A DNA stretch of 64,000 bases from Eledone cirrhosa (Eukaryota). The first letter of the stretch is position 1, and each line of letters opens with the position of its first letter. The position numbers and the translations under genes are program-made. The stretch spans positions 224,130,001-224,194,000 of the forward strand of contig OZ024741.1 in the NCBI GenBank assembly GCA_964016885.1, written 5' to 3'. Positions 1 to 55,779 of the stretch are shown one piece after another. Below the pieces are notes generated by a model. The model did no database searches and was not told the DNA's origin. It worked only from the letters and a program-made list of their open reading frames with translations.

Positions 1-1300
<1,300 letters not shown>

Positions 1301-13660: not shown

Positions 13661-14160
13661 GTAGTCACTGCTAGTGATGCAGGTTGCTCCTGATATATAT
13701 GATGATGCTAAATCACAAATTATGGTAAATTACAATAATTTTCTACTATTAATGAATGAATTCTCTCCCCTTTTTTCATATGCATTGAGACAGCTTATTA
13801 AAAAAGCAAAGTAAAATACCATGAAAGATGTAGTGTTTGCTGCAGCTGATGCTTTATAGAAACATCAGCACTTTTGATATCAAACTGCCTAAAACCACAC
13901 ATGGTTTTATGATACAAAACTGTTTCCTTTAATGTCTTTATATTCATCTAAAAACCTTCTATCATAATTTTATAGAAGATCTTTTGTTAAGTTATGTTCC
14001 AAATACCATCTTAATGACGAGAAAGTTAGTTACATTATTAAATCCCTCTGATACTTGATTATTTTCAAAGTTATTTTTAAATCATAGGCAGTGTCTTTCA
14101 TTAAAAAATGGCAACAAAAGAGTTAAATCATCCTCAGTATATGACTGGTACTATATTTTA

Positions 14161-14951
14161 AGCGGAAGTGTAGACGCCATGCAGCTCAGAAAATCACCGA
14201 TGCTGACTATGCGGATGATTTAGCGGTCCTCGCTGACTACCTTAAGGATGCAACATCACTACTTCGCAGCATCGAATCAGTTGCAAAGGAAATCGGACTC
14301 TATGTCAACGCAGGCAAAACAGAATATATTTGCCTGAACCAAGACTCCTCAGTTGGTATGCGAAGTCTAAACGGCGATATAATCAAGCAAGTTGACGACT
14401 TCAAATACCTGGGCAGCTATATCGCCTCCACAGAACATGATGTTAACATCAGACAGGGAAAAGCCTGGGGAGCATTGAATGCAATGGAAAAGATATGGAA
14501 ATCAAACCTGCCGGCCAAACTGAAAAGGAATTTCTTTAGAGCTGCTGTGGAATCTGTGCTTGTTTATGGCTCTATCACTTGGACGCTAACGTCGAAACTA
14601 CAGAAAAAGCTAGACGGGGCATACACACGTATGCTCCGCACTGCTTTAAACGTGTCTTGGAGGGAACACCCAACAAATAAGGATCTCTATCAGCAGGTCA
14701 ATACGTGGACAAAGACTCAGATTTGCTGGCCACTGTTGGCGCAGCAAGGAAGAAATAGCAGGTGATGTGTTGTTATGGAGTCCATCTCATGGAGCAAGAA
14801 ACGCTGGTCATCCCAAGAAGACATACGTCAAGCAACTTGAGGACGATACTGGATGCACTGCGGAAGAACTGGCAAATGCTATGAGAGACAGAGATGGATG
14901 GAGGAAACGTATCGTAGAAAGCCGAGGAAGCTCGACCTGATGATGCGGATA
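14161..14951 (+). mobile_element. 5'-truncated RTE LINE (RT C-terminal half) inserted into a family B SINE
   Basis: [54 protein letters not shown]; TSD ACTATATTTTA at 14150-14160 and 14952-14962. Confidence 0.92.
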
Positions 14952-15319: not shown

Positions 15320-16535
15320 AATAGACATCTTCGATATCACTTTGGACTTGTTTACCCAAGAGATACTCAACTTATTGGAAAGAAAGCAGTCAGAATCACA
15401 TGTTAATCACCTCACTTCTAAAACTAGCCACCAACCACCTTAAAAATGTGTTGGCTGTGGGTGGAAGTAGAATATCAAACTGATTTGCTGATAACAAAAC
15501 TTTCAATTGTGTTGCACAGATGTGCAACAAAGCCTTAAAAACTATTGGGTAGAAGTAAAAAACAAACAAACAAAAATATAAATAGAGGATTCCTACCTGA
15601 GAAAAATCATATACCCAGAAGAAGAAAAGGAAATATCTGTTTTTACTGGCCATACAATAGGGGGGGGGGGGGGGGGGGGGGGGGGAAGAGAGAGAGAGAA
15701 AAAAACCGAAAAATTGCCACAACATTTCTAGCCCTATTCAACAAACATTTCCCAGCTGAACACAAATGCTACACATTACTAGAAACAATATAAAAGGCAG
15801 TTTCAGTTGCATGTCAAATATGGGAAACAGAAAAAAAAAAACTAAAAAAAAATCCTTCCCTGATAATAAGATGCTAAAAAGAATGAACCCACTCAAAATC
15901 AGAATGTAACTGCAAAATCTCAAACCACTGTCCACTCAAAACTGAATTATTATGAAGAACTATTGCTTATAGTGTTATAGCACCAGCAAGCAACTATAAA
16001 GCAAAATAATGCTATACAAAACTTATGCAAAACACATTTATAAGCCATTATTCACAACATACTAGCTCCTTCTGAAACATGTATGATAAAAATGTGACAG
16101 CTTTGTCAAAGCATATTTGGTGACTAAAAGAGAAGACACACACAAACACATAAAAAAAAAAAATTATTATATTGAGATAAAAGGGTTCAGTCATTCAGCA
16201 TGCATAAATCTTGTACAAGGGTCACCAAGAAATGTAAAATTTGCTTGGCAGAAAAATATATCTTGATGGAAAAATTACAAATTACTCACTCAAAAACAAG
16301 AATTAATATAGAAATGCCACAAGATTTTAAAGAATTACAGCCAGATTGACAGTGCATAATTGAAAAACTGATCAGAAAGAAACATGCCAATATTACATGG
16401 CAAAAAAAACTTTGATAAAGCTTCCCTGACATCTATGAAATAACTACTTTATCTGAAGAAAACTATAGTACATGAGACATTTTGAGTAATAAATTACATT
16501 GGAACACCATCATCATCATGTTTGTTTTTACATAT
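15320..16535 (+). mobile_element. Decayed Penelope-like element (Neptune-like): RT thumb, linker, GIY-YIG endonuclease and pLTR
   Basis: Frameshifted motifs IDIFDITLDL, KIATTFLALFNKHFP, SFSCMSNM, ECNCKISNHCPL, QHTSSF..TALSKHIW, KKCKICLAEKYIL, KQELI.KC; decayed CTGAAGA at 16453 and AATAAA at 16488. Confidence 0.8.
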
Positions 16536-21955: not shown

Positions 21956-22094
21956 TTAAGTTATTGTTTGGGATCTGTTGGTCTGCCTGTTTGTAAGTTT
22001 ATTTGTCTGGGCTGTGTGTCTGCCTGTTTGTCTATATGTCTATCACTCAGGCTGTCTGTCCCTTCTGTTTGTAAGTCTATTTGTCTAGCCTATC

Positions 22095-23700
22095 TGTCTG
22101 CCAGTTTGTCTGTATGTCTGTCTAGCCATCTGCTCATCTATCTGTAAGTGTATTTGTCTGGTCTGTCTGCCAGTTTGTCTGTATGTCTGTCTAGCCATCT
22201 GCTCATCTATCTCTAAGTGTATTTGTCTGGTCTGTCTGCCAGTTTGTCTGTATGTCTGTCTAGCCATCTGCTCAACTATCTGTAAGTGTATTTGTCTGGT
22301 CTGTCTGCCAGTTTGTCTGTATGTCTGTCTAGCCATCTGCTCATCTATCTGTAAGTGTATTTGTCTGGTCTGTCTGCCAGTTTGTCTGTATGTCTGTCTA
22401 GCCATCTGCTCATCTATCTCTAAGTGTATTTGTCTGGTCTGTCTGCCAGTTTGTCTGTATGTCTGTCTAGCCATCTGCTCATCTATCTGTAAGTGTATTT
22501 GTCTGGTCTGTCTGCCAGTTTGTCTGTATGTCTGTCTAGCCATCTGCTCATCTATCTGTAAGTGTATTTGTCTGGTCTGTCTGCCAGTTTGTCTGTATGT
22601 CTGTCTAGCCATCTGCTCACCTATCTGTAAGTGTATTTGTCTGGTCTGTCTGCCAGTTTGTCTGTATGTCTGTCTAGCCATCTGCTCATCTATCTGTAAG
22701 TGTATTTGTCTGGTCTGTCTGCCAGTTTGTCTGTATGTCTGTCTAGCCATCTGCTCATCTATCTGTAAGTGTATTTGTCTGGTCTGTCTGCCAGTTTGTC
22801 TGTATGTCTGTCTAGCCATCTGCTCACCTATCTGTAAGTGTATTTGTCTGGTCTGTCTGCCAGTTTGTCTGTATGTCTAGCCATCTGCTCACCTATCTGT
22901 AAGTGTATTTGTCTGGTCTGTCTGCCAGTTTGTCTGTATGTCTGTCTAGCCATCTGCTCACCTATCTGTAAGTGTATTTGTCTGGTCTGTCTGCCAGTTT
23001 GTCTGTATGTCTGTCTAGCCATCTGCTCATCTATCTGTAAGTGTATTTGTCTGGTCTGTCTGCCAGTTTGTCTGTATGTCTGTCTAGCCATCTGCTCATC
23101 TATCTGTAAGTGTATTTGTCTGGTCTGTCTGCCAGTTTGTCTGTATGTCTGTCTAGCCATCTGCTCATCTATCTCTAAGTGTATTTGTCTGGTCTGTCTG
23201 CCAGTTTGTCTGTATGTCTGTCTAGCCATCTGCTCATCTATCTGTAAGTGTATTTGTCTGGTCTGTCTGCCAGTTTGTCTGTATGTCTGTCTAGCCATCT
23301 GCTCATCTATCTGTAAGTGTATTTGTCTGGTCTGTCTGCCAGTTTGTCTGTATGTCTGTCTAGCCATCTGCTCACCTATCTGTAAGTGTATTTGTCTGGT
23401 CTGTCTGCCAGTTTGTCTGTATGTCTGTCTAGCCATCTGCTCATCTATCTGTAAGTGTATTTGTCTGGTCTGTCTGCCAGTTTGTCTGTATGTCTGTCTA
23501 GCCATCTGCTCACCTATCTGTAAGTGTATTTGTCTGGTCTGTCTGCCAGTTTGTCTGTATGTCTGTCTAGCCATCTGCTCATCTATCTGTAAGTGTATTT
23601 GTCTGGTCTGTCTGCCAGTTTGTCTGTATGTCTGTCTAGCCATCTGCTCATCTATCTGTATGTGTATTTGTCTGGTCTGTCTGCCAGTTTGTCTGTATGT
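22095..23700. repeat. Homogeneous 69-bp minisatellite, ~23 copies
   Basis: Unit atctgctcatctatctgtaagtgtatttgtctggtctgtctgccagtttgtctgtatgtctgtctagcc; matches the 23-aa periodicity in the ORF track. Confidence 0.97.
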
Positions 23701-23769
23701 CTGTCCGTCTTCCCATCTATCTAAGTCTATTTCTCTGATCTGTCTGTCTGTCAGTTTGTCCATATGTCT

Positions 23770-24290
23770 GTCTGGTCATCAGCCCATCTATCTGTAAGTC
23801 TATTTGTGTGACATGTCTGTCTGCCAGATTGTCTGTATGTCTGGCCGCCCATCAGCCCATCTATCTGTAAGGATATTTGTCTGACCTGTCTGTCTGCCAG
23901 ATTGTCTGTATGTCTGGCCGCCCATCAGCCCATCTATCTGTAAGGATATTTGTCTGACCTGTCTGTCTGCCAGATTGTCTGTATGTCTGGCCGCCCATCA
24001 GCCCATCTATCTGTAAGGATATTTGTCTGACCTGTCTGTCTGCCAGATTGTCTGTATGTCTGGCCGCCCATCAGCCCATCTATCTGTAAGGATATTTGTC
24101 TGACCTGTCTGTCTGCCAGATTGTCTGTATGTCTGGCCATCTGCTCATCTATCTGTAAGTCTATTTGTCTGACCTGTCTCTTTGTCAGTCAGTTTGTCAG
24201 TATGTCTGTCTGGTCATCTGCCCATCTATCTGTAAGTCATTTTGTCTGACCTATCTCTTTGTCTGCTAGTTTGTCTGTATGTCTATCACT
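23770..24290. repeat. Related 73-bp minisatellite (~4-5 clean copies plus decayed ones)
   Basis: atcagcccat recurs at 23851, 23924, 23997 and 24070. Confidence 0.92.
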
Positions 24291-32370: not shown

Positions 32371-33857
32371 TGTATGTATGTATGTATGTGAGTGTGAATG
32401 TGTGTCTGTGTGAGACTGTCTGTCTCCTCTCATTGTCAGAAAGCTAGCTTTGACAAAACTGCAATATTTTTTATTCCATCCTGCATCATGTCTTATTCAT
32501 GGTTAAAAAGCAATTCTCCAAAGACTGCAAGTGAAATGTGACTGACCAGACATGTCTGTGATAGCTACGACAGACTTTCAAATTGATGTTAATGTGTATC
32601 TAGCGATTTATCAGGTGTAAACGATGGACAAGCGCTTCACAGCAATTTCTCAGATAGAGGGAGATCAAAGTTTTCGACAGCTGTCTGATGTATGTCATTT
32701 TTGAGGTAGTTTCCTCATTAATAATATTGATGTCTTCTGCACAAAACAGACTCATTTCATTATGCATAATTTAAAATATATATATAAAAAAAATGAGCTA
32801 AGGGAAATAACTCAATGAGGCCAATGACATGAATTTAGATCTACTAAATGACATATGTGACAAAAAAAAACAAAAAAAAAAAAAACAAACTAAAGTGCAC
32901 CACTGATATGAATTGAGATAAATAAGGCAATCTTTTTGATATCAAATCGTCTGAAATCGCCTCTGGTTTTATGATATAAAAAAATGTTTATTTAAGGCTT
33001 TATAATTATTTATACATAATTATTTATACATAATTTTATGCAAGAACCTTTGTTAACCCTTTAGTATTTAAAACTGCCGCCGTACCCAAGCAGAATTCTC
33101 TCACCTCTTTCTGCTTAAACCGGCTGTAACTAGCCACTCATACTGATGGTAAAATAAATAATATCAAAATCTCATTGATTACTTTTAAAATAATTTGAAA
33201 AGTAATCAAGAATTTGGAGGGATTTCGTAATAAAACTAACTGCTACATTATTAAGCTGATGGTGTTCATGGCAGAATTGTTAGAGTATCAGACAATATGC
33301 CACGTGACATTTGTTCCAGCACTTTATATTCTTAGTTCAAATCCCACCAAGGTTAACTTTGCCTTTCATCCTACCAATCAGTTAGTAGAGGTGATTTAAT
33401 TGATTTTCCCCTCCCCTCAGTTTGCTGGCTTTGTGCCTATATCAGAAACAATTATTAAGCTGGTGTTTGATGCATAACTTAATTGATCAAAACAGACTTA
33501 AGTTTGACATTGCTTCACTGATAAGCTCTAATAAGACTAAAACATGTCTGTAATTATCATGAAAATTAATTATGTGAAGTAACCCTATTGATACCACACC
33601 ACCTAAAACTGCCCCTGTTTCTATGATTAAAATTTGTTTACTTAAATTCCTTCCCTTATAATTTTATATATATATATATATATATAGTAATAATAATAAA
33701 TTTGAAGACTAAAATCCAAAGAGTGCTCGATAAGGATAAATATATATCAAATATAAGAACCGTAGAGCAAATATTTATTAAAATAACAGATTAAAGAATC
33801 GCTGCTTTCACCCTTAACGGGATCTTCTGAAACTATATAATTAATATATATATATAT

Positions 33858-34488
33858 ACATGGTGGCTGCCAACTCGTTTTCGAGTACGGCCACTACTTT
33901 ATATCCATGTAGGAGAACCCCTACCGATGCGCTGAACGAGTGTGACTTTTTAGTCCAGCCAGCGACTTGAAAACTCTGGTACAAACACTACACTTGTGAC
34001 AATTACTGACACATAGTGCTGGGCCCATGGTACCATGTGATGACAAGTGCAGAGAGATCTCCAGATACAAAGCAATGCCTGTGCCCTGAAGCTTTTATAG
34101 TGAGCAAAGGCACTGCACAAAGCCAGTCCCACTCTCTTAACCAAGATGATATTTACCAAAAAGAACAACAAGTCAACATCATTGGATACCATCAGGGCTG
34201 CAGGTGTTATATCAGAGTTTTCCTTCTCCTAGAATTCTGCCTTGACAAAGGCTAAGGGGTCATCTCTCCCGGTGATTTTGGATGGCCATTGACTCTTAAG
34301 AGCTCCTTTGCCCTTTGACAGGTTTTGTTTTTAGTCCTGCAGGATGTCCAAAGTCACCCTCCTCACCAAGAAACCTTGGTGGGGTTGCCAGTTTAGTCGC
34401 CAACGACCCGACCATGGGACAGGTTGTACTGGGATACATGTTACCAGTAGCACCAACTGGTGACCTGACACATACATACATACATACA

Positions 34489-34490
<2 letters not shown>
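33858..34490 (-). mobile_element. Apparently full-length (~630 bp) non-autonomous bipartite RTE derivative
   Basis: RTE-like 5' UTR (tctaggagaaggaaaactc) joined to an ORF C-terminus CHKCSVCTRVFKSLAGLKSHTRSAHR* and a short 3' UTR; copies at 48460-48750(-) and 58703-59090(+), all in TA/TACA repeats. Confidence 0.75.
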
Positions 34491-34523
<33 letters not shown>

Positions 34524-34657
34524 TAAATATTTATACTCTGCTATGTATTGAGTACCTTACTTCCTCTGATTGAACACAGGATAAACATATATCATCATCA
34601 TCATCATTTTACGTCCGCTTTTCCCTGCTTGCAAGGGTGGGATAATATATATGTATA

Positions 34658-34921
34658 GCCAGGGAGTGTAACTTGGAGTTACTGTAGGTTTACCCGGGTG
34701 AGCACTCGATGTTTAGGTTCACTTCAGTGTCGAGGTGTAGAGCTATACAGAGTATACACTCTGTATAGCTCTTGTAATGTTACAAGGGGTCTGACGAGCC
34801 GTGGATTACAGAGTCAGGTCAGATCGATACAGATCGAACCTTGAGCTGGTCAGTGGCGAAACGCGCGTCACCAACCAATAAACATAATGAAGGAGTAACC
34901 AATCGTCCTTGTTATCTTAGT

Positions 34922-34925
<4 letters not shown>
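34658..34925 (+). mobile_element. 268-bp ORF-less structured element carrying a hammerhead (solo pLTR or retrozyme-like)
   Basis: CpG-rich, several hairpins, intact hammerhead, AATAAA at 34877; flanked by (TA)n. Confidence 0.7.
34788..34872 (+). ncRNA. Type I hammerhead ribozyme with fully canonical core
   Basis: GGT-CTGACGA-GCC..54 nt..GGC-GAAA-CGCGCG-TC-ACC; predicted cleavage after GUC at 34869. Confidence 0.82.
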
Positions 34926-34969
<44 letters not shown>

Positions 34970-35232
34970 ACAGATTTCTGTAGTGTTCATCAACCAAATT
35001 TCACTCACAAGGTTATAGTAGAAAACACATCATGCCCAAGGTGCTACATAGTAGGTGTAAACTTGAAACCACATGGTTGAGAACTAGACTCCTTAACCAC
35101 ACAACCTTAAATGTACCTATTAATTCTCTTTTTTTATGTTTTTTTTTATTTTTCGGAAATACCCAAAAGACTGTTTTTCTTCACAGCAGCTGTCAAAATA
35201 TCTGGAGTATTCTTCTGGAATATAGAGTTTAA

Positions 35233-35422
35233 CCAGGAAGCATTTAAACCGGCCATATCCGGTCAGAATTCTCTCACTTACCTTAACATAAATCATATTT
35301 ATGTTAAGGTAAGGTTCTCAAAATAAATAATATCAAAATCTCATAGATTTGATATTAAGTGAGATAAAGCCTTTACCATGAAAATATAATAGTAAATATA
35401 GAGTAATGTAAATGTTAAAGGG
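35233..35422. mobile_element. piggyBac-type MITE (reverse orientation)
   Basis: TTAA flanks; homologous to 49042-49259. Confidence 0.75.
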
Positions 35423-35734
35423 TTAAGATATATATATATCTTTACATTACTTTGTTTTATGCGTGTAAAAAACTAGTTGCTGTTTAAACCTCCTTTTTTA
35501 TTTCATTCTTTTTTTCTTAGCTAGAAATTACTGTGTGACCCAATTTTGAATTGTCTACCCCACAGGCTTCAAGATGATGGAACACATGGAGGTGAAACCT
35601 CCATCATCTGCTTGATGGAGTTTGAGTTCTTAATTTCTTTCTCTCTCTCTCCTCCCTTTTCTTTCTCCCTCTCTCACTTTTTTTCTTTCTTCCAGTCCTT
35701 CTCTCTCTCTCTCACTTTTTTTCCTTCTTCCAGT

Positions 35735-35807
<73 letters not shown>

Positions 35808-36001
35808 GACACACACCTGAGATATTTCAGGAATTACTTTCATTGAAAAATGAATATACTCTGGCTGATTAGTTGCAATACTCTTTGAAATTGTTATCAA
35901 GAAATCAAACCAACTCAAAATTGATGCAGGGAAAAAATATATTTGTTCATTTGTTTCAGCCAATTTCTGTTGGTAACCATTTTTATTATTATCAGTATTA
36001 T

Positions 36002-36335
36002 AATTGTTTCCACTTTAGGCACAAGGCCAGCAATTACCCAGTGTATTACTGGTACTTTATTTTATCGACCCCCGTAAGGATGAAAGGCAAAGTTAACCTC
36101 GGCGGGATTTGAACTCAGAATGGCAAGGGCCGTAACTCAATGCATCAAAGCATGGTGGCCGGGCAGTACCGATACTGCCCGGCCACCATGCTTTGATGCA
36201 TTGAGTTACGTCCCTCTACGGTCTGAGTTCAAATCCCGCCGAGGTTCACTTTACCTTTCATCCTTACGGGGTCGATAAAATAAAGTACCAGTAATGCACT
36301 GGGTAATTGCTGGCCTTGTGCCAAAAGTAAAAACA
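36002..36335. mobile_element. Head-to-head fold-back dimer of SINE family B inside one TSD
   Basis: 17-bp TSD ATTATTATCAGTATTAT at 35985-36001 and 36336-36352; perfect 38-bp arms 36131-36168 / 36173-36210. Confidence 0.85.
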
Positions 36336-36365
36336 ATTATTATCAGTATTATTATTATGGTAGTG

Positions 36366-36650
36366 TGGAGGTGCTTGGCCTAGTGGTAAAGGTGTTGTAC
36401 TTACGTCTATAATGTTATTGGTTCGATTCCTTAGTTGGGTTGCATGTTGTATTCTGGAGTAAAACACTTAATTTCACATTACTCCAGTATACTCAGCTGA
36501 ATATGAGTAGCAGCAATAGTTAGGGGTTTAGCCCTGCAATGGACTGGCATCCTGTCCAGGAGGGAATCTTGTACTCTCTGTCTCTTCACACCATGAAACT
36601 GGAATAAGCACCGGCCTAATGAGCCTTAAATGGCTTAAGAGAGACTACTA
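36366..36650 (+). mobile_element. tRNA-derived SINE family D
   Basis: TGGCCTAGTGG A box and GGTTCGATTCC B box; head like family A but a different body (ccctgcaatggactggcatcctgtccagg). Confidence 0.7.
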
Positions 36651-38369
36651 CAGTAGTAGATTGGCAGTATTGGTAGAGTATTGGACAAAATGGTTTCCGG
36701 CATTTAACTACAACTTTCTATATTCTGAGGTCAACTTTATCCTTCATAATTCTGGGGTCGATAAAATAAAATACCAGTAAAGTTCTGGGGTTGATTTAAT
36801 TGATTTTTGTGCCTAAAGTAGAAATCAGTAGAAATCATTATTATGTTCTGAGTTCAAATTCCACCTAAATCAGAAACCAATATAATTGTTGTAATTAAAG
36901 GATTGGCAGAATCGGTAGAGCATCGGATAACATGCTTTATGGCATAGAGTTACGGCTCTTTACATTCTGAGTTCAAATCCTGCCACGGTTAGCTTTGCCT
37001 TTCATCCTTAAAGAGTCAATACAATAAAGTACCAGTACTGCACTGGGGTTGATTTAATCGACTTGCCTCTCCCCACCGAAAATTGTTGGCCTTGTGTCGT
37101 GTCTAAATCAGAAACCATACTTATTCATCCCTCCCCACCTCACATACATAACAAGACCTTTGTCTGGAAGGCAAGGGAAGTAAACTGAGCAGCAATCCTG
37201 TCTTTTCTAGAATAGAGATACCTAATAGAGAGACGAATATCTATTTATTTATTCTTTCTATGGTTCTTTGTTTTGTGTATGAGACAGCTGCTATTATGCA
37301 ATATCCCCTAACGATGGTGGGATTAGGGTGTGTAAGGTCCATATTCTCAGTTGGACAGAGATCTGGGTATTCACTCAGTATATGTTGAGCATTCTACTCT
37401 GGTAAATCATGCTGGCAGGCTGCTGATGGTTACATTGAATTGGCCAACACTGTGTAGCCGATTCAAGGATATCTACTCTGCCCAAGGGAGGTTAGTGCCA
37501 GAGGAGAAGGCTGTATTGGGTTAGGCATTTAGTTGGGTGGGTCAAGATGTCTTGCCAACTCTCCATGTCTGAAGCATGTTGAAATCTGAGTCTCACAGCT
37601 TTACTATCTTACAAAAGAAAGGGCAGCGTGACATCAAGTGTTGTTGACCTAGTAGCTGAGAATCTTCAGCTATGTCATGGAGTGAATGACTCGAGTCCAT
37701 TGAGGCTTTGGTTACCAACTAAAGTGCGTAATACTCTCTAAGAATCGATTCTATGGTGCTTGGTTAAGGAGTAAACTTCATAATCATGTGATTTCAGTTT
37801 CTATCACACTGTGTGGCTCCTTGGGCAAGTAAGTGCCTTCTACTATCGCCATGAGCCAACCAATACTTTGTGAGTGAAATTTGGGGATCACATTATATAC
37901 AATCACTCAGTACACTTCTGTAAAGTGGTTTATGATAGCAAGGGCTTTCAGCCATAAAAAACCTGCCAAACAAAGGATCAGGAAGACTCTTCAGCTATAC
38001 CAAGGACATGACATCTTCCCTGATGCATTAGCTATGAAATTAAAGTGAAATAACTACACGCAGATATCAAAATAAATTTGCAGACAGGGCACACCAAAAT
38101 TTACTATAGTAACCATATATCGTTTGCTAACATAGACAGAAAACCTCAAATTTTAGAGGAGTTAGTCAATTAAATTTAACTCAGAAATACGTAAGGCAAA
38201 GTTGATGGGATTTGAATTCAGACATAAAGAGCTGTAACTAAATACTGCAAGCTATTTTGTCCAATGTTTCACTGATTCTACCAATCTATTGCACATTTTT
38301 AAATAAGGATTTTAAGGGACTTTAAAAACTACAAAGGCTGCCATATATTGCTGACAACTTTATTTTATA

Positions 38370-49259: not shown

Positions 49260-51929
49260 TTAAGTGTATTTCAATAAAGATGTGCTACATGTCACTCTTC
49301 AATACATTTGAGATATATTGTATGTATGGTCCCATAACCCCTGATGCAGATCTAGAGGGTGCTTTCATGACATACAACATATTTTGGGTACTTTAAATTT
49401 GGCAGAGCCCACTCCGTCCCCAGGTCTGATCATGGGTGATTTCTTCGATAGAGAGAGGGAGGAAATGAGAACAAGTTATAGAGGAAGAATTGACTCCAGT
49501 ACTTGAAAGGTACTATTAATCAACCTTGAAAAGATGAAAGGCAAAGTTGACTATAGTGGGATTTGAACTTAGAGTGCAAAAGGCCAGAATGAATAGCACA
49601 AATCTAATGACTCTGCTAATTTGCTACTTTTTTCATTTGAGATATATTATGAAGTAAAAATTAGTTTTAAATGGAAATGGAAAGTGGGTCATGGGACTTG
49701 GTTTGCTAGAAAGAAGTAAAGCTCTGCAACTCAGCTCCAATGTTAGAATTCCTCTTTAAATGATTTGAAACCTTATTAAAACATCATTGAAATTGAACAG
49801 AATTTCTCAAGAAAAGTGGTGACTTAATGTATAAAGAACTGCTGTTGCAGTATCTTTTAGATCCCTGGCAATAAAAACGATTAGATTTGATATATTTCTG
49901 TTATCATTTAAAAAAGGAAAATTACTTTTAAAAAATGGAGAAGGGAGAAACTTTGGTTATATTTGAAAAATAATAAAATAAATCTAAAAATAAAATAGAA
50001 ACTCACGTTGGAAGTAAAAATTAGCGACTTGCCTTAAAAATTTGATAGAAAATTCTATTTTACCCATAGGAGTTTCTTGATTTTCTTTTTATTCTTTTCA
50101 AAACTTTCTCCACAATTTAATGATACAGAGTTATCGATATTATCCAGAGAGAAATTTTGGTAGATTTCTTAACATTAAGCTAATAATTGTGATATTGAGG
50201 GAAACACGGTAATATAGTGACATTTCTTTGTGGAAAACATTCAATGAATCATTTTGTATGTAACCCTTCAATTCTAAAATTGAAATTCTTTATGATTCTT
50301 TGATAAAAGCAGTAAAAGAAATGGAATTGAACTGATAACATTTAATAAGAAAAATAAACTGTTAGAATTGTATTTTATTCAAAGAAACTAAATTTGAACA
50401 GAGGAAAAAATATAAAACAAACATTAATGTTTGTATATGTGTGTGTGTTTGGCAGAATTTTAAAATTATTTACTGTTTACTGAAATTTTGCAAAAGATTT
50501 CGATTTTATTTATTTTCGTTTATTTATTTATTTCAATAAAAGTATAAGCATGTTATCTTTGTCAGTGAAACAAACATATTAACTATACATTGTTGAAAAT
50601 GAAACATTATTCGAGATAGCAAATTCTGTTAAGGGAAGATATATTAACCTCCCTGCCGCAGCAACCAACACATTATTCTCATTATTTACTTATATTTTCC
50701 ATACTTTCCTCTGAGATCCAATTAAAGTTTTTATCTTTTATTTGATATTGGTTTTACTTTTTGTCTAAGAAGAGGGGTGGCATACAGTAGTTAAGGTTTG
50801 AAAGTAGTAAACTATAAGTAGTGAATCTGATGTTTATTGAAGAGAATAGAGAGATAGTAATTGGGTGGTGGTAGTAGTGGTTATATAAACCAAAGGTAGA
50901 GTGTATAAGTGCTGATAGTGGTGGTATGTATATATGAACCAGTAACTCTTGTTGGAGTCATGCGGGTGATATCAAGACATACAGTATTCTTTGGGCATTT
51001 TAAACCTGGAGGAACCCATTACTTCTCCAGGTTTGAACACATCTGATTTCTTTCAGAGAAGGAGGGAGAGAGAGAGAGTGAGAAAGAGACACAGAGGAAG
51101 AATCGACCCCAGCACTGGACTAATACTTTTCTTATCTACCTTGAAAAGATGAAAGACAATGTTGACTTTGGTGGATTTTTAACCCAGAACATAGACAGCA
51201 GGAATGATTACCACAAGGCATTCTATCCAATGTTCTAATGATTCTGCCAATTCGCCACATCTAGTAGTGTTGGTTCTGATGGTAGTGGTGGTTATGGTGG
51301 TGGTCATGGTGGTGGTTGTGTTGGTGGCAGTGGTAGTGGTGGTAGTGATAATTATATAAACCAGAGGTTGAGTGGTGGTTGTAGAGGTGACTGGTGGCGG
51401 TTGTGTTGGTGGCAGTGGTAGTGGTGGTTGCATTGGTAATGGTGGTTGCAGTGGTAGTGATAGTTATACAAATCAGAGGTTGAGTGGTGGTTGTGGTGGT
51501 TTGGTGGTAGTGTTGATTATATAATCTAGAGTTAGAGAGTGGTACTAGTAGTGGTGGTAGTGATAGTTATATAAACCAAAGGTTGAGTGGTGGTTGTGTT
51601 GGTGGCAGTGGTGGTGGTGGTTGCAGTGCAAGCAATAATTATATAAACCAGAGGTTGAGTGGTGGTTGTGTTGGTGGCAGTGGTGGTGGTGGTGGTTGCA
51701 GTGCAAGCAATAATTATATAAACTAGAGGTTGAGTAGCTGCTGAAGTGAAGGTTGCTGTATAAACCCGAAGTTGATGGAGGTAATCTAGAAGTATAGTTA
51801 GTGAGGTGTAATTAAAAGTTGTGAACCACAGGTGAGTTAACGAGGTAGAGATTGATGGTAGTAAACCAGAGATACAGTAGCTGAGGTATATTAAGGTGAT
51901 GGTAGTAAACCAGATGTAGTGTAGGTGTT

Positions 51930-54728
51930 GATGGTAGTAAACCAGATGTAGTGTTAACAGAGGTGTTGATGGTTGTAAACCAGATGTAGTGTTAACAGAG
52001 GTGTTGATGGTTGTAAACCAGATGTAGTGTTAACAGAGGTGTTGATGGTAGTAAACCAGATGTAGTGTTAACAGTGGTGTTGGTAGTAAACCAGATGTAG
52101 TGTTAACAGAGGTGTTGATGGTAGTAAACCAGATGTAGTGTTAACAGTGGTGTTGGTAGTAAACCAGATGTAGTGTTAACAGTGGTGTTGATGGTAGTAA
52201 ACCAGATGTAGTGTTAACAGTGGTGTTGATGGTTGTAAACCAGATGTAGTGTTAACAGTGGTGTTGATGGTAGTAAACCAGATGTAGTGTTAACAGTGGT
52301 GTTGGTAGTAAACCAGATGTAGTGTTAACAGTGGTGTTGATGGTAGTAAACCAGATGTAGTGTTAACAGTGGTGTTGATGGTAGTAAACCAGATGTAGTG
52401 TTAACAGTGGTGTTGGTAGTAAACCAGATGTAGTGTTAACAGTGGTGTTGATGGTTGTAAACCAGATGTAGTGTTAACAGTGGTGTTGATGGTAGTAAAC
52501 CAGATGTAGTGTTAACAGTGGTGTTGGTAGTAAACCAGATGTAGTGTTAACAGTGGTGTTGATGGTAGTAAACCAGATGTAGTGTTAACAGTGGTGTTGA
52601 TGGTTGTAAACCAGATGTAGTGTTAACAGTGGTGTTGATGGTTGTAAACCAGATGTAGTGTTAACAGTGGTGTTGGTAGTAAACCAGATGTAGTGTTAAC
52701 AGTGGTGTTGATGGTAGTAAACCAGATGTAGTGTTAACAGTGGTGTTGATGGTAGTAAACCAGATGTAGTGTTAACAGTGGTGTTGATGGTAGTAAACCA
52801 GATGTAGTGTTAACAGTGGTGTTGATGGTAGTAAACCAGATGTAGTGTTAACAGTAGTGTTGATGGTAGTAAACCAGATGTAGTGTTAACAGTGGTGTTG
52901 ATGGTAGTAAACCAGATGTAGTGTTAATAGTGGTGTTGATGGTAGTAAACCAGATGTAGTGTTAACAGTGGTGTTGATGGTAGTAAACCAGATGTAGTGT
53001 TAATAGTGGTGTTGATGGTAGTAAACCAGATGTAGTGTTAACAGTGGTGTTGGTAGTAAACCAGATGTAGTGTTAACAGTGGTGTTGGTAGTAAACCAGA
53101 TGTAGTGTTAACAGTGGTGTTGGTAGTAAACCAGATGTAGTGTTAACAGTGGTGTTGATGGTTGTAAACCAGATGTAGTGTTAACAGTGGTGTTGATGGT
53201 AGTAAACCAGATGTAGTGTTAACAGTGGTGTTGATGGTAGTAAACCAGATGTAGTGTTAACAGTGGTGTTGATGGTAGTAAACCAGATGTAGTGTTAACA
53301 GTGGTGTTGGTAGTAAACCAGATGTAGTGTTAACAGTGGTGTTGATGGTAGTAAACCAGATGTAGTGTTAACAGTGGTGTTGATGGTAGTAAACCAGATG
53401 TAGTGTTAACAGTGGTGTTGATGGTAGTAAACCAGATGTAGTGTTAACAGTGGTGTTGATGGTAGTAAACCAGATGTAGTGTTAACAGTGGTGTTGGTAG
53501 TAAACCAGATGTAGTGTTAACAGTGGTGTTGATGGTAGTAAACCAGATGTAGTGTTAACAGTGGTGTTGATGGTAGTAAACCAGATGTAGTGTTAACAGT
53601 GGTGTTGATGGTAGTAAACCAGATGTAGTGTTAACAGTGGTGTTGATGGTAGTAAACCAGATGTAGTGTTAACAGTGGTGTTGATGGTAGTAAACCAGAT
53701 GTAGTGTTAATAGTGGTGTTGGTAGTAAACCAGATGTAGTGTTAACAGTGGTGTTGATGGTAGTAAACCAGATGTAGTGTTAACAGTGGTTTTGGTAGTA
53801 AACCAGATGTAGTGTTAACAGTGGTGTTGATGGTTGTAAACCAGATGTAGTGTAGCTGTTGATGGTTTTAAACCAGATGTAGAGTTAACAGTGGTGTTGA
53901 TGGTAGTAAACCAGATGTAGTGTTAACAGTGGTGTTGATGGTAGTAAACCAGATGTAGTGTTAACAGTGGTTTTGGTAGTAAACCAGATGTAGTGTTAAC
54001 AGTGGTATTGATGGTAGTAAACCAGATGTAGTGTTAACAGTGGTGTTGATGGTAGTAAACCAGATGTAGTGTTAACAGTGGTGTTGATGGTAGTAAACCA
54101 GATGTAGTGTTAACAGTGGTTTTGGTAGTAAACCAGATGTAGTGTTAACAGTGGTGTTGATGGTAGTAAACCAGATGTAGTGTTAACAGTGGTATTGATG
54201 GTAGTAAACCAGATGTAGTGTTAACAGTGGTGTTGATGGTCGTAAACTAGATGTAGTGTTAACAGTGGTGTTGATGGTAGTAAACCAGATGTAGTGTAGC
54301 TGTTGATGGTTTTAAACCAGATGTAGAGTTAACAGTGGTGTTGATGGTAGTAAACCAGATGTAGTGTTAACAGTGGCGTTGATGGTAGTAAACCAGATGT
54401 AGTGTTAACAGTGGTGTTGATGGTAGTAAACCAGATGTAGTGTTAACAGTGGTGTTGATGGTAGTAAACCAGATGTAGTGTAGCTGTTGATGGTTTTAAA
54501 CCAGATGTAGAGTTAACAGTGGTGTTGATGGTAGTAAACCAGATGTAGTGTTAACAGTGGTGTTGGTAGTAAACCAGATGTAGTGTTAACAGTGGTGTTG
54601 ATGGTAGTAAACCAGATGTAGTGTTAACAGTGGTGTTGATGGTAGTAAACCAGATGTAGTGTTAACAGTGGTGTTGATGGTAGTAAACCAGATGTAGTGT
54701 TAACAGTGGTGTTGATGGTAGTAAACCA
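51930..54728. repeat. 38-bp minisatellite (35-bp variant lacking GAT), ~75 copies
   Basis: Unit gatggtagtaaaccagatgtagtgttaacagtggtgtt; no unique spacers. Confidence 0.98.
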
Positions 54729-55779
54729 GTGGTGCACTTACTAAGGTATGGGATGTTGATAGTAAACCAGAGACAGAGTTACCTAAGTGGAGGATGGTGT
54801 TAGTGAACCAGTGGTACAGTAACTCATATGCAGATGATAGCTTAATGGGGAGGTGAATGATTGTGTTTGCCATGAAGATCAATTTGATGTGTTTAATGTT
54901 TTATTTGGTAAGATGAATTTTACCTGATAGCACACGGATAACATGTAGAAGAATCCTCAACAAAACATCATCCATCTCTTGTTATTTTGCATATTAACAA
55001 ATTCTGACAAAAGCAATATTTAGTATATAATAGTAGAGAAAAATAAATAGGTCTTTTTTGTTTGAAATAAAGTTTTTATATTTTGTCAGTAACTAATTTA
55101 GAAAGGATGTTCCAAATTGTTTCGGATACATGAAATTACATATTTATAATCAGACAACTAGATAATCAAGACTTGTTCTTCAGAGAATTTGATTAAAGAC
55201 TTTGGCATGAGGAAAAACATGAGGAAAAACAGAGATTTTTTTACTTTTAATTTGTGGGTTGAAATATTTTAAGAGTTTGAATTCAAAATAAGTGCAAAGA
55301 GATTGAATTTGTATGTACCCTTGGGATTGAGAGAGAAAGAGAGAGATAAGCTAGAAAAAGTGAGCTATGGATTAAATAGAGTAAAAAATGCACAGGTTGA
55401 CAGGTAGTCTGCCATGCTGGCCTAAGCCAATAGTGGTTAACACTGCTTACTTGATCATTTGCAACAATCTCAAAAGAAATGCTTGACAGTTGTCTATTTC
55501 ATGTTTAAACCAAATGACCACCTCCTGTAGTGTTTGATAATTTGGTGGGAATTTGTGTACCAAATTTACTTTTTTTTTCAGATGACAAAATGGTGATATA
55601 CAATTTTGCCACAATAGTAAACTAGACATACAGTTATTGAACTATGTGATAACAGTTGTAAAACGAAGGTACATTTAGGGTGGTAAGTCATGTTGGTAGT
55701 CTATCAGCAGTTGAGTTAGGAAAGTAAGGTTTAGAGTTTGTAGACTATTACTACAGTAAAAGATGCTCAGTACTAAATC

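Follow-up and report, generated by a model that had tools for sequence, protein, structure and literature searches.

What kind of element is a 268-nt unit that carries no open reading frame, is rich in hairpins and contains every core base of a hammerhead ribozyme? Such a unit lies at 34658..34925 of the window analysed here, a stretch of 64,000 nt of the Eledone cirrhosa genome (contig OZ024741.1, positions 224,130,001 to 224,194,000 of assembly GCA_964016885.1), and an earlier note made from the letters alone had read it as a single young element, either a solo pLTR of a Penelope-like element (PLE) or a retrozyme. We suggest that it is, very probably, an inverted tail joined to the hammerhead-bearing pLTR end of a PLE with Hydra-clade motifs, made by two-site priming at a (TA)n target.

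The hammerhead motif is of type I and occupies 34788..34872 of the forward strand. Its stem I pairs GGT (34788-34790) with ACC (34870-34872) over 3 bp; the core CTGACGA (34791-34797) leads into an extended helix II of 60 nt (34798..34857), in which GCC/GGC closes a 54-nt insert and which a constrained fold resolves into stacked helical segments with a GAUC/GAUC hairpin cap. There follow GAAA (34858-34861), the palindromic helix III ACGCGCGT (34861..34868), which is the predicted dimer interface (self-duplex -13.3 kcal/mol), and GTC (34867-34869), with cleavage predicted after C34869. AATAAA at 34877..34882, on the same strand, is a putative poly(A) signal. CUGANGA, GAAA and UH are thus all present together with three helices, and inspection of the sequence confirmed each motif that the earlier note had listed, its three upstream hairpins included.

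Could the motif be a chance match? A structural scan that allowed helix II up to 80 nt found this single type I hammerhead candidate in the window and no second copy, and 30 Markov-shuffled windows gave one match in total, none with a palindromic helix III. A search with the Rfam hammerhead models, as the note had proposed, gave no hammerhead match at E<=1 in 33000-37000; the only hits there were hairpin-type miRNA models and other weak matches under the gathering score, the miRNA models being drawn by a near-perfect inverted repeat at 35990-36300. (That repeat is long, is centred near 36170 and stems from an inversion within a common repeat; 35830-36300 matches 71 of 218 sampled loci.) The Rfam result, the 3-bp stem I and a descriptor that needs a long insert are what a chance match would predict, and we give it next to no credence: such matches are rare in shuffles, the motif sits where other PLE hammerheads sit, and families about 70% alike preserve its core spacing, its helix II and its palindromic helix III. 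Since a long-armed hammerhead of this kind escapes both Rfam and short-loop descriptors, such motifs may be under-counted.

The long arm is the unusual part of the structure. Across 11 hand-picked sequences from the window's own and sister families, helix II comprises 22 pairs, with 88% of cells paired and 5 pairs changed on both sides. The corresponding test gave 88.5% paired cells against 83.3% in shuffles (0/500) and 26-38% when slid, with 8 of 28 pairs changing on both sides; the structure was derived from these same related sequences, so this support is suggestive and is not to be read as a probability. Compensatory changes between families occur in stems I, II and III, and helix III is palindromic or near-palindromic with other letters in the sister families. 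By comparison, none of the 26 Hydra hammerhead rows of File S2 in Craig et al. (2021, PMC8557442) has a loop II above 10 nt, as against the 54-nt structured insert here, the precedents for longer spacing in that source being two spike-moss PLE-X1 hammerheads (28-34 nt) and the 35-50-nt half-core spacers noted in Naiads. The minimal hammerheads of metazoan PLEs, as described in the consulted part of Cervera and de la Pena (2014, PMC4209133), share the short helix I and palindromic helix III but have a helix II of 6-8 bp in place of a 22-pair, multi-segment arm; they are mostly solitary or in close opposite-strand pairs, and have low activity as monomers.

In folding calculations on the window copy, stem I has a pairing probability below 0.1 in the monomer, and the modelled active monomer lies 8.5 kcal/mol above the minimum. 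The modelled active dimer, at -58.5 kcal/mol, compares with -57.4 for two free monomers and lies 6.5 above the best dimer. An active monomer is hence disfavoured by the model, and an active dimer plausible.

The 268-nt unit as a whole folds better than shuffles (z -3.3), and the 15-bp hairpin upstream of the ribozyme probably contributes to this score. That hairpin is absent from all 29 closest relatives, and the reason lies in how the unit was assembled. In copies chosen by motif alone, the ~100 nt that start the window unit are found in reversed orientation immediately after the ribozyme part; the unit is therefore composed of an inverted tail, a junction and a pLTR end, two pieces set head to head where one 268-bp element had been proposed. 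The inverted tail, on the reverse strand at 34659..34753, is the ~100 nt between reverse transcriptase (RT) start sites 1 and 2 and has 93% identity to the full-length copy at L141, where its counterpart is the stretch immediately 3' of the pLTR end; its site-2 end, at 34659, adjoins the target. The pLTR end, on the forward strand at 34780..34925, is 5'-truncated, runs from about -90 to site 1 (+56 from the cleavage site) and is 88-89% identical to both L141 pLTRs. Between them, exact-match dissection against natural copies (L101, L139, L156) resolves the inversion junction (34754..34782) into 19 nt of forward tail start (34754-34772) and ~12 nt of reverse-complemented pre-ribozyme UTR (34771-34782), and it is this composition that creates the 15-bp and 7-bp hairpins. 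The label of a hairpin-rich element thus holds for the GTAACT/AGTTAC stem, which belongs to the tail and is conserved, and lapses for the other upstream hairpins as RNA features, these being private to the copy. The placement between two (TA)n runs is likewise right on one side, where (TA)20 follows at 34926..34965 (the TATA at its start is likewise what the element itself has past site 1); on the left there is only a target remnant, a degenerate run of ~12 bp at 34645..34657. Nor is the copy young: of 150 positions, 8 (~5%) depart from the column majority of its subfamily, and two later sublineages exist. It carries no open reading frame and is most likely an inert fossil.

The family to which it belongs is large. 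A first look at the 3.0-Gb genome yielded 3373 candidates, and exact probes of 28 and 26 nt found 616 and 1486 matches, respectively (reversed controls, 0), which bears out the expectation of a multicopy family. Targeting of (TA)n is borne out as well, since (TA)n adjoins at least one end of all 29 closest copies fetched, as read by eye.

Longer copies identify the parent. One copy extends upstream into an AC-rich UTR, and in all 30 loci picked by that UTR the pLTR end lies directly downstream, 15 of them carrying the tail next in the same orientation. Upstream of the UTR, translations of L101, L116 and L137 read by eye give an endonuclease (EN) region with a CxCX5C linker, CxxC and CxH, and upstream of this again is an RT with RWR, DKT and YRDD; L139 and L141 have the order RT, EN, UTR, pLTR. 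Ten long loci include four with pLTR-ORF-pLTR, the distance from pLTR to pLTR being ~3.8 kb in L144 and the 3' UTR ~1 kb, and in longer copies the tail continues into the ORF's start. Nine homologues have 32-42% identity, the same motifs recurring in the four inspected, and ADKT and RWR in L139 align with their DKT and RWR/RWK. Pfam assigned no family to any of 7 translated stretches; the endonuclease was classed as GIY-YIG-type from eye-read motifs and its likeness to P0001-P0007. No complete unbroken ORF was met in a non-systematic look at the copies viewed. UTR, EN and RT thus stand upstream of the same pLTR, which is the linkage to PLE RT/GIY-YIG ORFs that the earlier note had asked about and which upholds its proposal that the hammerhead, with its palindromic helix III, belongs to the pLTR of a Penelope-like element.

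From these sequences we take the parent to be a (TA)n-targeting Penelope-like retrotransposon with Hydra-clade motifs, the clade call coming from motifs read by eye rather than from a tree. As defined in the main text of Craig et al. (2021, PMC8557442), the Hydra clade has a C-terminal EN, DKT, RW(K/R), CxCX5C and CxxC/CxH, and lacks CCHH, which is absent from our translations as well (by eye). Hydra-clade PLEs in that account resemble the parent in their EN/RT motifs, in inserting at (TA)n, and in having a 3' hammerhead, tails and copies that are inverted and 5'-truncated, and the loci studied here have the same PLE insertion structure, with pLTRs, an optional tail, 5' truncation and an inverted 5'-truncated copy. 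They differ from it in size (by tendency <3 kb, against ~3.8 kb with a ~1-kb 3' UTR) and in tail length (30-40 nt against ~100 nt), and Hydra-1_Obim, at 2.5 kb, has a hammerhead that differs from that of the window family; four motifs of the latter were not found in the supplement text of the same paper.

A genome search for GIY-YIG sequences gave 10596 candidates, of which 150 were scored and 20 loci fetched. The one locus with the pLTR nearby (L067) was rejected as parent because that pLTR is a separate insertion behind (TA)n beside a different PLE. The latter, at L067:370-2240 (+), is broken and has at its 3' end, near 2215-2250, a short hammerhead-like motif with a CCGG loop (by eye). A fixed 5' end at the EN linker, suggested by three copies, was also rejected, as most of 30 further copies continue into the RT. 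A second, AT-rich Hydra-like family, with broken RT and EN, lies beside the reference copy at L101:2500-4160 (+), and the window itself holds, at 15596-16268, a decayed Hydra-like linker/EN fragment with 24-31% identity to 6 of the 9 homologues.

A coding parent bears directly on whether the unit might be a non-LTR retrozyme, or another short, non-autonomous element, multiplying in units of 268 nt and possibly via circular RNA. Non-LTR retrozymes, as described in the consulted parts of Cervera and de la Pena (2020, PMC7229834) and Li et al. (2026, preprint 10.64898/2026.07.22.740005), are alike in their type I hammerhead, palindromic helix III, size and kinship with PLEs. The size of the unit fits, short copies far outnumber UTR-bearing ones (3373 vs 589 first-look candidates), and among 40 scored of the 3373 candidates 39 other places match the near-whole unit at 83-89%. 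These 39, however, were selected for likeness to the window's layout, and their junctions all differ. Copy ends are fixed at +60 and +158 instead of being permuted about the cleavage site. Retrozymes are tandem, head-to-tail and without a coding parent, the working definition in the preprint requiring two consecutive units, whereas what is seen here is a dispersed product of truncation and inversion that in longer copies is contiguous with an RT-EN ORF. The check for head-to-tail arrays (a minimum of two successive units, each having a complete hammerhead) found 0 in 68 loci; same-strand pairs in two of the 68 are one double inversion and one pair of different subfamilies, and an extra pair, at L276:795-1115, is a local duplication in which an inversion-type copy was tandemly duplicated together with its (TA)n flank. 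We regard the retrozyme reading as highly improbable, and return to that of a PLE fragment.

How, then, was the fragment made? The census of ends began from 70 loci in the C1 listing of exact 26-mer matches, a few listed places already sampled or adjacent having been skipped, and removal of 2 duplicates left 68 loci with 110 arms; an exact 26-mer favours young copies. Counted from the cleavage site, 48 of these arms end at site 1 (+58..65) and 51 at site 2 (+155..158), with 11 ending elsewhere, and the element has TA-rich bases just past both sites. The loci hold 37 head-to-head inversions, whose end classes used wider bins: 35 pair a site 1 end with a site 2 end, none pairs two ends alike, and 2, from one complex locus, are unclassed. 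Six further long inversions from another listing likewise have one arm of each kind, as judged by eye. The two arms overlap in 28 of the 35, by up to several hundred nt, and are without overlap in the other 7 and in the window copy.

We propose, from sequence comparison, that this one-of-each pairing is the genomic footprint of priming on both target strands, and that the element is likely to have been copied from two fixed start points at once. The RT-endonuclease would nick both strands of a (TA)n run and prime two cDNAs, one per fixed internal start site, each nick priming one site, probably aided by the TA-rich bases past both, and the two cDNAs would then be joined by template switching. 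Because arms overlap in 28 of 35 inversions, two templates are favoured, and most inversions would have used two RNAs. Given the same parentage, the inversions could also have arisen from a single RNA, through twin priming with strand displacement as in LINE-1, or from a fold-back repaired once the element had inserted; the window copy and the 7 inversions without overlap fit one-RNA twin priming equally well, and junctions carry short templated fold-backs. Overlaps of up to several hundred nt count against a single RNA, and post-insertion fold-back predicts two arms with the same end, of which none was seen among 37, so that this alternative deserves some weight but appears distinctly the less likely. 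Head-to-head inversions, we note, are apparently common in other repeats of this genome too.

Two-site priming on both strands has a biochemical counterpart. For Poseidon_Ac (PAc) of Anolis, the sections of Frangieh et al. (2024, PMC11167929) at hand report that both strands are cut and extended in vitro and that two internal RT starts define the tail. PAc is like the parent in having two RT start sites that bound the tail, AT-rich targets and a hammerhead near the ORF start; it differs in belonging to the Penelope/Poseidon clade and in start sites reported as non-homologous to the target, those of the window family both being next to TA-rich bases. Those sections contain no description of a one-of-each inversion rule for PAc.

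The 5' ends of arms are also clustered (39 of 110 in -120..-81 and 18 further upstream, partly read by eye), and 17 of 36 non-inverted arms have their 5' end in -125..-77. Subfamily variation accounts for the bunching of BLAST ends at -87 and -95. The clustering at -120..-81 suggests that short copies would derive from the 5' end of an mRNA that starts 0-40 nt upstream of the core; alternatively, AT-rich microhomology or alignment edges, and not a transcript start, could produce the pile-up. Near it, just upstream of the core, is a TCATT that we take to be initiator-like. A downstream promoter element at +28..+32, checked by eye, was discarded for its inconsistent fit across subfamilies.

The history of the core bears on whether the hammerhead works at all. 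Among 138 copies that span the motif the core is fully intact in 56, position 4 being C in 57 and position 6 being T in 47. Matched genome patterns gave 1054 matches for the U4C+A6U type against 549 for the intact type (controls, 0), exact core patterns favouring young copies, and 1186 for the older grade, which has C4 in 76 of 100 among the matches listed. A tree of 86 rows (53 subsampled from the 138, and 33 relatives), with sister family C as outgroup and a rough bootstrap, gives the order CUGA in family C, mostly CCGA in the older grade, CUGA in the window's grade, then CCGA and lastly CCGU; with this root the U4C+A6U copies form a derived clade nested among the others. Departure from the column majority amounts, in series, to 9.9%, 7.3%, 5.4% and 5.5%, the older values being inflated by the mixing of subfamilies, and to 2.8% in 12 hand-picked young CCGU arms. 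The youngest copies have lost bases of CUGA, but their GAAA and palindrome persist, as do almost all the pairs of helix II.

As we read these sequences, the lineage went on amplifying after losing two core bases. Because the U4C+A6U sublineage outnumbers intact cores, cleavage is probably dispensable for transposition. To cleave at all, the hammerhead of the window copy would need to dimerise or to be helped by a protein. Hammerhead mutants of PAc were without effect on insertion in vitro, according to the same sections of PMC11167929. One might hold, with the parentage unchanged, that the hammerhead is active and required, in dimeric or protein-assisted form, and that the mutants retain residual activity or are cut in trans. 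Several points speak against full dispensability: U4C and A6C hammerhead variants keep low activity in the account given in part of PMC3088659, an RNA with a mutant core might be cleaved in trans by an intact partner in a heterodimer, and the sublineages differ from one another by few substitutions. The window copy has an intact core, as does family C; compensatory changes between families run through stems I, II and III; the energy modelled for the active dimer roughly matches that of two free monomers; and position 4, mostly C in the older grade, reads U once more in the window's grade, which selection for activity could explain. Yet no neutral change is commoner than C-to-T at a CpG such as that of position 4, the older grade is dominated by U4C, and the U4C+A6U sublineage is both the youngest and the largest. 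Stem I is barely paired in the modelled monomer, and just 2 arms out of 110 begin no more than 5 nt from the cleavage site, a weak test since most sampled copies are core-mutant. A required ribozyme seems to us unlikely on balance, and we retain the reading in which cleavage is probably dispensable.

What the motif would do without cleavage is a matter for speculation, and we offer one possibility very tentatively: in this lineage the hammerhead may now be a non-catalytic scaffold for RNA dimerisation and RT loading. The helix III palindrome and the helix II arm would pair two transcripts for a dimeric RT-endonuclease, which would prime both (TA)n strands, one per start site. Such a scaffold, if real, would make sense of the one-of-each rule, of arms that overlap, and of the youngest copies, in which CUGA bases are gone but GAAA, the palindrome and helix II are retained.

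Stem I has its own variation. L228, L231, L238 and L273 represent a sub-lineage of the older grade, of U4C background, whose stem I reads ACT on its 3' side and, in a subset of copies, AGT on its 5' side, which from the sequences is possibly a compensatory change.

Sister family C (L240:1524-1760 (+); L239-L263, L279-L298) is our best candidate for an active long-armed ribozyme. It is young, ~3% from its column majority, gave 2157 first-look candidates, and combines the same long helix II with an intact CUGAGGA core, a 7-bp stem I and a C.A mismatch at the base of helix II; 2 of 20 of its loci have, ~1.2-1.3 kb upstream and in the same orientation, the end of a Hydra-like EN. Two diverged long-armed variants, at L241:1173-1290 (+) and L236:1454-1570 (+), have ACATATGT and ACATACGT, respectively, as helix III.

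The window copy itself is an ordinary fossil. The class to which it belongs, Penelope-like elements, is well known, and the hammerhead motif is a real feature. No description of the window family, of its long-armed hammerhead, of the one-of-each rule or of the core loss was found in the full-text literature searched, a scope separate from Repbase, Dfam and supplements, where the family may already be recorded, and the portion of PMC13282606 at hand mentions neither hammerhead, ribozyme nor Hydra. The role of PLE hammerheads and the origin of tails and inversions are described as open questions in the relevant sections of PMC8557442 and PMC11167929. The family constitutes a natural experiment, with dated sublineages of intact, U4C and U4C+A6U cores beside a young sister family of intact core, and with short insertions by the thousand that preserve, in their ends, a trace of how they were primed.

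Elsewhere in the window, a 206-aa open frame with YADD at 14145-14765 (+) is presumably a LINE RT fragment, and two homogeneous satellites occupy 22093-24248 (69 bp x 31, 95%) and 51897-54729 (38 bp x 76, 93%).
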